This document shows positions 53,370-61,019 of a stretch of DNA of 64,000 nucleotides, piece by piece. Within the stretch, counting starts at the first letter, position 1. Each line of letters begins with the position of its first letter. The notes beneath the pieces are model-generated. The model worked only from the letters and a program-made list of their open reading frames with translations, did no database searches and was not told the origin of the DNA. Position numbers and translations under genes: made by a program. Origin of the DNA: Escherichia coli (GTDB taxonomy: Bacteria; Pseudomonadota; Gammaproteobacteria; Enterobacterales; Enterobacteriaceae); NCBI RefSeq assembly GCF_044647545.1, contig NZ_CP172818.1; one strand, given 5' to 3'.

Positions 53370-53399
53370 ATATTCAGGGTACTGGTAACGGTATCCGGG

Positions 53400-55092
53400 T
53401 TAATGTGTGCGATATGTCCCAGTATCGGTGTCTTTGCCGCGGGTACGGTTATAGGCCACATCAAGGCTAAACAGATCAGTGGTATATTTCGTCATTACAT
53501 CCCAGCCCCAGATTTTGGCGTTCGGGACGTTATACGACATAGTTGTCGCCGCCGCGAAATCGACGGTCGTGGAGATGTAATCCTTCGCTTTGGTATCAAA
53601 GTAGCTGGCTTTAAATTCCAGAGCATCATTGGACAACATCAGGTCATCAAAACGCAGCCCAAAACCGTACTCCTGAGTTTTTCGTTAGTTTCCGGACGTG
53701 CAGCGTGGCACCCAATAGTTGGTATAGAAGCGACCAATCGAGAAGTGCTTAGAATCGTTATACATTTCGCCCATCGTCGGGGCGCGGAATACCTGGGCAT
53801 ATGAGCCAAATAACATCAGCCAGTTGGTCGGGTTGATAGTCATCCCCGCACGAGATGACCATTTGTCAGCATCAACATCTTTGTAGCCGTCGCTGCTACC
53901 GCGATAACTGTCATAGCGGGTTCCGCCAAGCAGAGTAATCGGCAGATCGCGTAAGGTGATCTCATCCTGTAGCCAGCCGGAGCTAAAATAGATTTTGCTT
54001 GCGGGAAGCCCGTCGTCGCGCCGCCCGGATGTTGTTCCTGACGATAATACTCACCGCCATATGTCAGTAAGTGAGAAGCGAAACTGTCGGCAAATAAGTC
54101 CGGAACGGTTCTCCAGCCTGGCTCCTTTTGTTATCTGTTCACGATACTCGCCGGAACTCCCCGTGTTTTGCGCATTAATACGGACTTCCGACCAGTAAAT
54201 TTTTGCATCTGCATTTAACCAGTCGTTGCCCTGTGGGGCGAGTTTATAAGAAAGCTGCGCATCGCGTTGAATTGTTGAACGATCAACCATCGGGTTGCTG
54301 CTATCGAGAAACTGCTCAACAGTCTGCGGATTTTTTGGTTCACGCGCGTCGTTGTTGTAGTAACGCACTAAACCGCTCAGAGACTGGGCTGAAATCAATT
54401 TGCCAGGTCCCTTTCGCCAGCATGTTATTAATGGACTCGTCATTCGGCGCGGTTTCACCATTGCTCTGGCGTAAATCACCCCGATCGCGACTGGACCAGG
54501 CCACAATACCATCCAGATTTTCAGTTCGCCCAAACGCGCTCGCGCCTAATCCCAGGCTATGGTCCCCCGTGCCGCCAGTACCAAAGACACGAAAACCACT
54601 GCTTTGTCCTTCCTGCAATAAATCTTTTGCATCGACCGTATCGTAGGAGATCACTCCACCCAGCGCGCCACTGCCATACAGTAATGCTGAAGGTCCGCGA
54701 ACGATCTCAACACGCTTGATCAGCGCCGGATCGAGAAAAGTGCCATTCAGGTGTCCGGTATCCGTTCCCTGGCGAACACCATCGACAAGAACCAGCACGC
54801 CGCGATGATCATAGCCACGCATATTTACATCCTGACCGTTGGTTCGTCCGGTACCATCAAGAGTAATTCCAGGAACATGACGCAGCAAATCAGTGGCTGG
54901 AGTCGCCGTTTGATTTTCAGGAGCGGAAGTGTCGATAACGCTGACCATCATAGGCGCTTCGAAGGAACTACGTGCATTCCCGGTTGCCGTAACGGTCATG
55001 GTTTCAGTAGCAAAAGCAAATGTTGGCAAGGTGGCAGAAACAGCCAAAGCCAACAAACTCAAACGCAACGAGGTAAATTGCGGACGTGACAT
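53400..55092 (-). pseudogene. chuA: TonB-dependent heme receptor ChuA/ShuA-like, frameshifted and 3'-truncated
   Basis: N-terminal ORF 54340..55092 has signal peptide, TonB box ETMTVTA and plug domain; continues in other frames (54051..54533, 53400..53639); about 1.7 kb remains of an expected ~2 kb. Confidence 0.8.
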
Positions 55093-55375
55093 AGCGATTC
55101 TCCATGAGGAAAATAAAATGCTGGCTGCCTGGTTAATTGCAGTGCTGGCGAAAAATAAATTTATTTACAATTCAAATGATTAGATATCACCACGGGAAGC
55201 TATTAGCGTATATATCCCGTAAAATTGCCGAATATTTCTGATAATTCAGCAAAAGCACGCCCTCTTTGTCAGGCAAAGTAGTACGCCACGTCTGAAGTGA
55301 AGAGTGCTGTGCGTTTCCCTTACAAAAGATATGATTTTGTTATCCATGATGTCATATTTTGTTAAACTCAAACGT

Positions 55376-55394
55376 GATAATGAGAATTATTATC
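55376..55394. promoter_or_regulatory. Fur-box-like operator in the chuA-chuT divergent region
   Basis: GATAATGAGAATTATTATC versus consensus GATAATGATAATCATTATC (2 mismatches). Confidence 0.6.
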
Positions 55395-55722
55395 GATCAA
55401 TTTTTTATGATCAAGCTTTTTTAACCGCCATTAACACAATAAACAGGGATTATGGAATCTTATCCAGCATCAGAAAACCATCCTGTGTTTATGGCTATCC
55501 CCCACAACCTCATCACAAAACGTTGTCGTTAACAGTGATAATTTTCTCTTCTCTTTGCTCTGCAAGCCGCGATATCTCCGGGTTCTCAGCTTTTTCCCGC
55601 GCTGAAATTTAATCGGTAACAAGAACGTTCACGACGAAGCATCTTGATAAAAATCAAAAATAAATACGCTTGTAACGCCGTGCGTATTGAATCGACGGTT
55701 GTATTTCATATATAACTCAAAT

Positions 55723-55741
55723 GATAATCATGATCATTCTC
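55723..55741. promoter_or_regulatory. Fur-box-like operator upstream of the chuT remnant
   Basis: GATAATCATGATCATTCTC, close to the Fur consensus. Confidence 0.55.
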
Positions 55742-55845
55742 AATTTGATAAGGGTTCTCATATTATGCCAAGGATCATCACCAGGCCGTTTCTTTTTTCC
55801 CCACTGACGTTATGTATTTCAGCCGTGGCCTCTGCCGCGAAGACC

Positions 55846-58027: not shown

Positions 58028-58039
58028 CAGGAGTGATTT

Positions 58040-58534
58040 ATGAGCCATGTCTCGTTGCAGAATTTTGAAAACGGAGCCGGACGGTACGCTGGAGGTGGTA
58101 GCCGAACAATACAACACCACACTGCTGGAAGTAGTGAAAGATCTGCCCTCCTCTACCATAGTGTCAGGCGATAAATTCGATACTGTCTGGGATACCGTCT
58201 GCGAATGGGGCAACGTCACCACGTTAGTACATACTGCCGATGTAATCCTCGAATTTAGCGGCGAATTCTGCCTTCGGGTTTCCACCGCCACGGCTATTTC
58301 AACCTACGCGGAAAGCACGGCATGTCCGGGCATATGAAAGCAGAAAACTGCACACATATTGCCTTGATCGAACGTAAATTTATGGGCATGGACACCGCCT
58401 CTATTCTCTTTTTCAATAAGGAAGGCAGCGCCATGCTGAAAATCTTCCTCGGCAGGGATGACCATCGTCAGCTCCTGAGCGAACAAGTCAGCGCCTTCCA
58501 TGCTCTGGCAGCATCGTTAAAGGAACACGCCTGA
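58040..58534 (+). pseudogene. chuX: ChuX-like heme utilization protein, frameshifted
   Basis: ATG 58040 (MSHVSLQ), then ORFs 58047..58337 and 58322..58534 in shifted frames. Confidence 0.65.
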
Positions 58535-59162
58535 TGACGCCGTGGCTACTCTTTTGGCGCAGGCGGAAAAGGTGTGGGTGCCAGAACGCTTGAACTGGCG
58601 CTGGCAGCAACGTCCAGTGGCGAGTACTATCGTTCGTCATGCCGATGCCGCCACGAAACTGGCGCAACAAGGCGTACAGGTTTTTACAGGCGACGCCTGT
58701 GATGCCAGCGTAACCTGACGGATGCTTGCCACGCAGCTCGGCCCGGATGCGCTTGTGGTTCAACAATGGGCGGAGCTCAGGATTATCTGGCGCACGAACA
58801 GTGATTGATGAGGCCGAAAAGGCCGGCATCAGTCGCATGATTCTGGTGACCTCTTTGGGATGCGGCGATAGCTGGCCATTTTTATCGGAGCGAGCAAAGG
58901 CTGCGTTTGGTCAGGCGGTACGGGAAAAAACGCTGGCGGAAAGCTGGTTGCAAACCAGCCAGCTTGATTACGCCATTCTCCGCCCTGGCGGTCTGCTGGA
59001 TGCGGGCGGCAACAGGGCAAAGCACAACGGATACAAAATCAGGAGTGTCATGGTTTTGTTCACCGTGCCGATGTCGCCGCACATATCCATGAACTGGCAA
59101 ATGCGCCAGCACTTAACCAGCAGGTCTACAGTCTGATTGAACCGGACCTGAAACCGGCGTGA
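58535..59162 (+). pseudogene. chuY: ChuY-like NAD(P)-binding protein, frameshifted
   Basis: Rossmann-like FGAGGKGVGARTLELALAA visible only in a shifted frame; C-terminal fragment ORF 58726..59136. Confidence 0.6.
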
Positions 59163-59210
59163 TACCCCGGCGCGGCATGTCCGCGCCGTAATGTCGTAAC
59201 GGAGTTTTGC

Positions 59211-60204
59211 GTGCTCAAGGATTCACTCTCTTCCGCCAGGGTCTACTGGGGCTATCACTATTATTGCTAGCTCTGGTGCTGTTCGGTGCCAGTCAGGGGA
59301 GCGTAAAGAATCAGTTTTGATGCCCTTTTTGATGAGGAATACCGCCATATCTGGCTCAATATTCGTCTACCACGGGTTTTGCTGGCGGTGCTGGTAGGTG
59401 CAGCGTTGGCAACCGCAGGGGTAATTATGCAGGGGCTTTTTCGCAACCCAATGGCTGACCCTGGATTACTTGGCGTCAGTAGCGGTTCTGCATTAATGGT
59501 TGGCGTTGCTATTGTGCTGCCCTTCTCCTTCCCAGTGGTGCTGGTGCTCTATGAGCAAATGGTGTTTGCCATTGCCGGAAGTTTAGTGGTCTGCACCATC
59601 ATTTTTCTCATCACGCAGCGCCATCGCGATGGCAGCATGATGCAATTATTACTCGCCGGTATCGCCATCAATGCCCTGTGCGGCGCAGCGATCGGCATCC
59701 TGAGCTATATCGGCGATGAGCAGCAGCTACGACAACTCACATTGTGGATGATGGGCAATCTTGGACAGGCGCAATGGCCGACGTTATTGGTTGCCAGTTC
59801 ATTCATCCTACCGGCCATTATCGCAACAACTTGTCTCGCCGGAACGCTGAATTTACTGCAGCTCGGTGATGAAGAAGCCCATTACCTCGGCGTGAACGTT
59901 AAGCGTAAACGCCAGCAATTACTGTTAGTGAGCTCACTGCTCGTTGGTGCCGCCGTATCGGTAAGCGGCATTATCGGCTTTATTGGCCTGGTGATCCCGC
60001 ATCTGATTCGCATGACTACCGGAGCAAATCACCGCTGGCTAATCCCTTGCTCCGCCCTCGCCGGAGCCTGTTTATTGCTGATGGCAGACACGCTTGCCCG
60101 CACGCTGGTACAGCCAGCAGAAATGCCCGTGGGATTATTAACCAGCCTGCTTGGTGGTCCTTATTTTATGTGGTTGATTCTGCGCAACCCGGAGGATCAC
60201 ATGA
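59211..60204 (+). pseudogene. chuU: Heme ABC transporter permease ChuU-like (FecCD family), frameshifted at N-terminus and fused in frame to downstream ATPase fragment
   Basis: ORF 59379..60386 carries FecCD-like TM segments and reads through into the ATPase N-terminus. Confidence 0.7.
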
Positions 60205-60972
60205 TCAGCGCCCAGAATCTGGTTTATAGCCTTCAGGGGCGGCGTCTGACTGATAATGTCTCGCTGACTTTTCCCGGTGGGGAAATTGTTGCCATTCTCG
60301 GCCCTAATGGTGCGGGAAAATCTACGCTGCTTCGCCAGTTAACCGGCTATCTTCAACCTGATAGCGGCGAATGTCGGTTGTTTTAATAAGCCATTAAATG
60401 AATGGTCGATTACTGAACTGGCGAAACACCGGGCCGTGATGCGTCAAAATAGCCACATGGCGTTTCCATTCAGCGTACAAGAAGTTATCCAGATGGGGCA
60501 GCATGCATCGCACTGGTAATCAGGATAATGAAACAGCACAAATAATGGCGTTATGTGACTGTCAGGCGTTAGCAAACCGCGACTATCGGCAATTATCCGG
60601 TGGTTGAACAACAGCGCGTACAATTAGCGCGCCTGCTGGTGCGACTCTTGGGAACCAACTCCCTCACCGAAATGGTTATTTCTTGATGAACCAACTTCGG
60701 CGCTGGATATTCACCATCAGCAGCACTTGTTCCGTTTATTACGCCAGTTAGTTCACGAACGGCAGTTCAATGTTTGCTGCGTACTGCACGATCTAAATCT
60801 TGCCGCGCGTTATGCAGACCGTATTGTATTAATGCAAAAAGGAAAGGTTATCGCAAATGGTAAACCACAGGACGTATTGACACAGCAGGCGCTGACCATG
60901 CTTTACGGCGCGGATATTACCGTACTTAAAGATCCTGCCAACCATTCACCACTGATCGTCCTCGATCATTAA
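60202..60972 (+). pseudogene. hmuV: Heme ABC transporter ATPase HmuV/ChuV-like, frameshifted
   Basis: Walker [12 protein letters not shown] at about 60300; C-terminal fragment ORF 60727..60972 in another frame. Confidence 0.7.
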
Positions 60973-61019
60973 AACCAACAGGAGTACCGCACTGGTACTC
61001 CTGCGAATAACTATACAGA

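Follow-up and report, generated by a model that had tools for sequence, protein, structure and literature searches.

The apparent decay of a chu heme transport locus in an Escherichia coli assembly is most probably non-biological

The heme transport locus of Escherichia coli lies in the acid fitness island, shows a patchy distribution and poses an old puzzle, being either fully present or cleanly absent there (PMC5799925, citing Wyckoff et al. 1998). Is a locus that appears neither whole nor absent a natural intermediate between these two states? This question is raised by a 64,000-nucleotide (nt) stretch of E. coli DNA (NZ_CP172818.1; the window), which carries recognisable but broken chu genes at positions 53370-61019 (the island), between dctR and yhiD. 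A sequence-only reading had taken the island for a fossil caught mid-erosion. We found that it is the ordinary E. coli chu/shu heme transport locus at its usual site within the acid fitness island and that its lesions are private to one assembly. Judged from their pattern only, the small lesions are probably uncorrected consensus or base-calling errors of the deposit and not mutations. The chu locus itself is already known and its apparent decay in the window is most probably non-biological.

The 7,650 nt of the island aligned collinearly and at 98.1% nucleotide identity to RefSeq-annotated chuA and chuT-chuW(hutW)-chuX(hutX)-chuY-chuU-ATPase loci; failure of the fragments to align to chu/shu genes, an outcome the sequence-only reading had allowed for, was thus not observed. 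A megablast search with positions 52800-61700 against the RefSeq set of 5,426 complete E. coli genomes, of which the source genome of the window is not part, matched 5,420 genomes, 2,234 of them with at least 80% query cover. The matched regions of these 2,234 genomes are annotated as chuS, chuA, chuT, hutW/chuW, hutX/chuX, chuY, shuU/chuU and a heme ABC ATPase, and lie between dctR and yhiD. The earlier reading had correctly noted that about 7.6 kb separate two genes that are adjacent in K-12 (41 nt in MG1655, the empty site) and had correctly named and ordered chuA, T, W, X, Y, U and V. Its presentation of the segment as an unusual insertion did not hold, since the position is the normal site of the locus in 2,234 of the 5,426 genomes. 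The nearest genomes are of the ST648 type and the best match, E. coli FDAARGOS_497 (NZ_CP033850.1), was used as reference. Its gene order, all intact, is slp, dctR, chuS(-), chuA(-), chuT, chuW, chuX, chuY, chuU, ATPase, yhiD(-), hdeB and hdeA.

Genes, order, orientation and site, between dctR (yhiF) and yhiD, are those of the chu/shu locus of pathogenic E. coli and Shigella dysenteriae (chuS-chuA / chuT-W-X-Y-U-V). Unlike that locus, the window has no chuS downstream of chuA, lacks the chuA 3' end and holds no open reading frames (ORFs) for full-length proteins, all seven remaining frames being broken. The ORF listing showed no long open frames within the island and long open frames in both neighbours, dctR and yhiD (Table 1); the exact 176-residue dctR protein is common in public protein data.

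Lesions were counted in a pairwise alignment of the retained island to the FDAARGOS_497 (ST648-type) allele. The 148 differing columns all fall within 53406-61006, the adjoining 2 kb on the right being free of differences, and amount to 62 substitutions and 71 indels (41 deletion and 30 insertion events), 133 events in all, in 7.65 kb. The rightmost lesion is a 4-nt contraction of an AATA repeat at 61006, 14 nt before yhiD. Alignment and indel counts bore out the earlier statement that every gene is frame-broken, with 3-15 frameshifting indels each. The chuA gene is open only over its first 250 codons (54340-55092), and chuU contains an 840-nt stretch (59347-60187) without any difference from the ST648 allele.

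One way to read such a locus is as genuine evolutionary erosion, in which a long-inactive island has gathered neutral frameshifts, substitutions and a deletion and represents an intermediate towards the K-12-type absence. This would fit with all genes being broken and chuS being gone, with indels that prefer homopolymers, and with substitutions spread over the three codon positions without bias (22/18/13), as expected without selection. Natural partial islands are also known, for example that of HH97 described below. Against this stands the comparison with the flanks. In an alignment of the entire window with 80 kb of FDAARGOS_497, approximately 49 kb were alignable outside the island. No substitutions were observed in window positions 1-18216 and 24649-49500 (43 kb), while 50339-53369 contains two substitutions and one 3-nt deletion, and one further single-base deletion lies at 32013. 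Two substitutions and two indels in the ~49 kb of alignable flank, compared with 133 events in the 7.65 kb of the island, correspond to an approximately 200-fold excess. If the island substitution density of 0.81% is taken as neutral time, the flanking genes, with 6,858 four-fold sites, should show about 56 substitutions at these sites, whereas at most one was observed (P ~4e-23). General assembly noise across the window was rejected as well, given only four small differences outside the island and a natural substitution pattern in the rhsB segment of the same window.

Perfect flanks beside a divergent island could also be accounted for if homologous recombination had brought a decayed island from a divergent lineage into an ST648-type backbone. 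We therefore turn to the retained sites, about 435 in number, that are polymorphic among five natural alleles (ST648, IAI39, LF82, EDL933 and S1-CHI-01-A) in a multiple alignment. At 420 of these the island carries the ST648 state, and only about four window differences coincide with any other natural allele, part of these owing to ambiguous alignment. This identifies the island as the allele native to the strain, which did not arrive in a decayed state. The next-best natural allele, that of IAI39, is a further 1% away. Taken together, import is scarcely credible. Further, the 25 best complete genomes score equally and therefore none of them shares a lesion, and an exact-pattern scan for one noisy patch gave no match in GTDB representatives or JGI metagenomes.

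The lesion spectrum also differs from that expected of erosion. Indel events (71) outnumber substitutions (62), and spontaneous mutation in E. coli yields far fewer indels than substitutions. Events are bursty, with 57% of inter-event gaps at or below 10 nt compared with 16% under a Poisson model and a variance-to-mean ratio of 3.5 in 100-nt bins; many clusters are complex local scrambles, and the sequence between clusters matches perfectly over as much as 840 nt. Homopolymers of at least 5 nt hold 8 of the 37 deleted bases, compared with a background of 2.5%, and coincide with 10 lesion clusters where 3.05 are expected (p = 0.0002), so that enriched homopolymer-length errors, as looked for in long-read data, are present. 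On the plus strand, 31 transitions are of the A<->G type and only 6 of the C<->T type (p = 4e-5). The bias has the same direction in chuA, a minus-strand gene, and in the plus-strand genes chuT to chuV, and therefore tracks the strand that was sequenced, not the direction of transcription. Of the 14 A>G changes, four created GATC from AATC (p = 1.6e-4), and four GATC sites were lost. Motif enrichment was scored on reference motifs only, as counting motifs gained in the window inflates every motif, TGCA included. Compared with the unbiased 22/18/13 over codon positions in the island, the rhsB segment, set against a phylogroup A strain, has a natural distribution of 26/20/86, with four gaps among 178 mismatches.

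Hence none of the signs by which pseudogene decay would be recognised was found: neither a lesion density matching the flanks, nor lesions shared with relatives, nor a substitution-dominated spectrum free of sequenced-strand bias. The claim of a fossil caught mid-erosion fails on the flank contrast, the near absence of four-fold changes, the strain's own ST648 allele and a spectrum that is not spontaneous. With bursty events, strand-asymmetric transitions and confinement to a single assembly added, we consider erosion very improbable.

Sequencing error remains the explanation we favour. Errors in nanopore consensus sequences cluster at methylation motifs and homopolymers (PMC6591954), and modification-induced miscalls, for example G-to-A at GATC, are strand-specific (PMC11610603). 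The island resembles such an unpolished nanopore-type consensus in its homopolymer-length errors, its bursts and its strand-specific purine miscalls, and perhaps in confusions at methylation motifs. We propose that this stretch may have kept the accuracy of one or few single-molecule long reads (~98%), with the remainder of the chromosome having been corrected. Read depth over the island may have been very low, for instance if most cells or reads lacked it or if short-read cover was missing, and polishing would then have been skipped. The strand asymmetry of the transitions may point, indirectly, to low or one-stranded depth. This low-depth step is needed because the noise ends 37 nt and 14 nt from the island edges.

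Several observations weigh against this explanation. The same sharp edges, the left one being the deletion junction, require an extra assumption, namely low depth or missing short-read cover exactly over the island. Errors in an unpolished consensus are usually assembly-wide, and those of the window occupy only 7.65 kb. Real mutation, too, can produce indels biased to homopolymers. Lesion clusters at reference GATC sites are weakly enriched (5 compared with 2.35 expected, p = 0.08), and Dcm motifs (CCWGG) are not enriched at lesions.

The noise is a property of the public record. In a public collection of about 15 billion proteins, four exact window products are on record, all from one NCBI contig: the truncated chuT of 165 residues (P0001), a chuU-chuV fusion ORF of 319 residues (P0002), a C-terminal chuW ORF of 130 residues (P0003) and an RhsB fragment of 1,002 residues. 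The truncated chuT and the chuU-chuV fusion form singleton clusters. As the broken ORFs are present in a public NCBI assembly, the noise was already in the deposit and the sequence is not a constructed one.

That the sequence is a real public deposit is also in keeping with lesions that are real and not clock-like, produced by a mutagenic process acting locally, or by mutagenesis or engineering of chu in the laboratory, with about 2% damage confined to the island. The sharp edges and the coincidence with a deletion at the left edge would agree with this. On the other hand, the confusion of AATC with GATC, the changes in homopolymer length and a strand bias independent of gene orientation suggest reading errors over DNA chemistry, and no vector, cassette or scar sequence was found at the island edges. 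We know of no bacterial process that would alter 7.6 kb at about 2%, by indels and substitutions alike, and leave the neighbouring DNA untouched. Localised damage of this kind is therefore improbable in our view. There is correspondingly only a slim chance that the lesions are physically present, that is, that an ST648-type E. coli carries about 130 small mutations in the island and four in 49 kb of neighbouring DNA. If they were, an unknown mutagenic or error-prone copying process directed at the island would have to be assumed.

Separate from the small lesions, 1,394 bp of the intact FDAARGOS_497 locus (positions 3571-4964 of the extracted region L001) are absent from the window in the pairwise alignment, comprising the whole of chuS and 257 nt of the chuA 3' end. 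The alignment consists of one block at 100% (window 52001-53369) and a second in which window 53368-63000 matches from reference position 4965 on. The absence of chuS noted in the sequence-only reading is thus explained by this deletion, as is the chuA truncation at about 1.7 kb: the gene retains 1,726 of 1,983 nt and its C-terminal end (~85 codons) is gone. The junction was found in none of the 5,426 complete E. coli genomes, nor by exact-pattern scans in GTDB species representatives or JGI metagenome contigs. We regard the deletion as a separate event, either strain-private or a mis-join, which may be real because deletions that begin at the dctR stop do occur in nature, as in HH97. If real, chuA and chuS would be lost and with them heme uptake by the chu system, whatever the status of the small lesions.

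Among complete genomes, 2,238 have any chu match, and only four of these retain less than 80% of the island. In APEC O2-211 (NZ_CP006834.2) an ISVsa5 insertion lies in chuA. In HH97 (NZ_CP116409.1) a deletion runs from the dctR stop codon to mid-chuY, leaving chuU, chuV and yhiD intact, and over 2.9 kb the retained chuU-chuV shows 46 mismatches and one gap relative to the ST648 allele. After the dctR stop, HH97 (L010 4935-5300) and K-12 (L009 3214-3255) have the same 36-nt spacer, ATTTCAGGCTTACGGTGAGTCTGGCTACGCTGCCAC, ending at the same base; in HH97 this spacer joins mid-chuY. HH97 has the look of a genuine intermediate, placed between strains that carry chu and the clean absence in K-12. Both APEC O2-211 and HH97 resemble the window in showing a strain-private loss of function, and the HH97 deletion also begins at the dctR stop codon. 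In contrast to the window, each shows one large event with the remaining genes intact and without dozens of frameshifts, and the lesion pattern of the window is unmatched among natural cases in the genome collection. As a side line, the K-12 36-nt spacer was considered as a chuA remnant at the window breakpoint (ATTTCAGG compared with ATATTCAGGG); local alignment to the whole island scored 20-22, compared with a shuffled mean of 20.5, and the resemblance is attributed to chance.

A variant of the sequencing-error explanation, whose probability is contained in that of the latter and does not add to it, is population heterogeneity. Most cells would have lost the island while the assembler kept the longer path from one or two reads of the same orientation, unpolished for lack of depth. 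This would explain the match of the noise to the island limits as well as the ~98% accuracy and the one-strand bias, and the HH97 deletion starting at the dctR stop codon offers a natural precedent. The internal chuS-chuA deletion is left unexplained, and we regard the variant as possible yet rather doubtful. If true, the noise would still be technical, yet it would flag a chu island that is being lost.

Table 1. Features of the chu island and its borders in the window. Lesions are relative to the FDAARGOS_497 allele; first stops are given as codon/total codons, read from the native start of each chu gene.
Feature	Position	Strand	Substitutions	Frameshifting indels	First stop	Remark
dctR	52839-53369	+				intact left flank; 100% identical to FDAARGOS_497 dctR (WP_000478615.1)
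deletion junction	53369-53370					at dctR stop codon; 2-nt (GA) microhomology
chuA	53370-55092	-	9	15 (events)	251/660	TonB-dependent heme receptor
chuA-chuT divergent intergenic region	55093-55764	.				clustered lesions at 55115-55633
chuT	55765-56674	+	7	7	166/304	periplasmic heme-binding protein
chuW/hutW	56694-58027	+	17	13	56/445	radical-SAM anaerobic heme-degrading enzyme
chuX/hutX	58040-58534	+	3	3	45/164	
chuY	58534-59162	+	11	12	20/207	anaerobilin reductase
chuU	59211-60204	+	3	5	20/330	ABC permease
chuV/hmuV	60201-60972	+	3	4	62/256	ABC ATPase
yhiD	61020-61667	-				intact right flank; 100% identical to FDAARGOS_497

Over its 64 kb the window departs from ST648 genomes at three accessory sites, despite zero core substitutions. 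Positions 18217-24648 hold an rhsB-yhhH-yhhI (ISEc1) segment in the place between nikR and yhhJ that hicAB occupies in ST648-type genomes. Its best match in the 5,426 complete genomes, in phylogroup A strains, reaches only ~97%, with a natural third-codon-position substitution pattern, and a +1 at 19423 together with a -1 at 19485 splits rhsB into ORFs of 382 and 1,002 residues. At 49501-50338, an AT-rich and A/C-rich stretch of 838 bp, with a REP-like start and a long poly-A run, replaces an ArsR/SmtB regulator and permease module of FDAARGOS_497. About 650 nt of it were unmatched in complete E. coli genomes even in a distant search mode, to which the low-complexity filter of BLAST may contribute. 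Two direct repeats of ~115 nt (46862-46975 and 47093-47206; 88.7% alike) lie between gorA/dinQ and arsR, and we take them to be probably the agrA/agrB small-RNA repeats beside dinQ. As for the individual flank differences, the single C deleted at 32013 lies inside a DUF4049 gene, the mismatch at 50342 sits at the end of an alignment block, and 51365 C>T and the in-frame 3-nt deletion at 51395 fall in a 406-residue hypothetical protein upstream of slp, whose exact sequence a public protein look-up did not find on record elsewhere. The source chromosome of about 4.5 Mb is small for the ST648 type, the related complete genomes being 4.9-5.3 Mb in size.

In conclusion, pseudogene-rich islands in single assemblies call for a comparison with flanks and nearest relatives before they are interpreted as decay. 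This matters in practice since chuA is used for phylogroup typing, and a corrupted chuA can mislead in silico typing. Had erosion been true, the window would have provided a rare intermediate bearing on the puzzle of a heme transport locus that is either present or absent in the acid fitness island. The evidence says that it is not such an intermediate, and HH97 is a better candidate for a true one.

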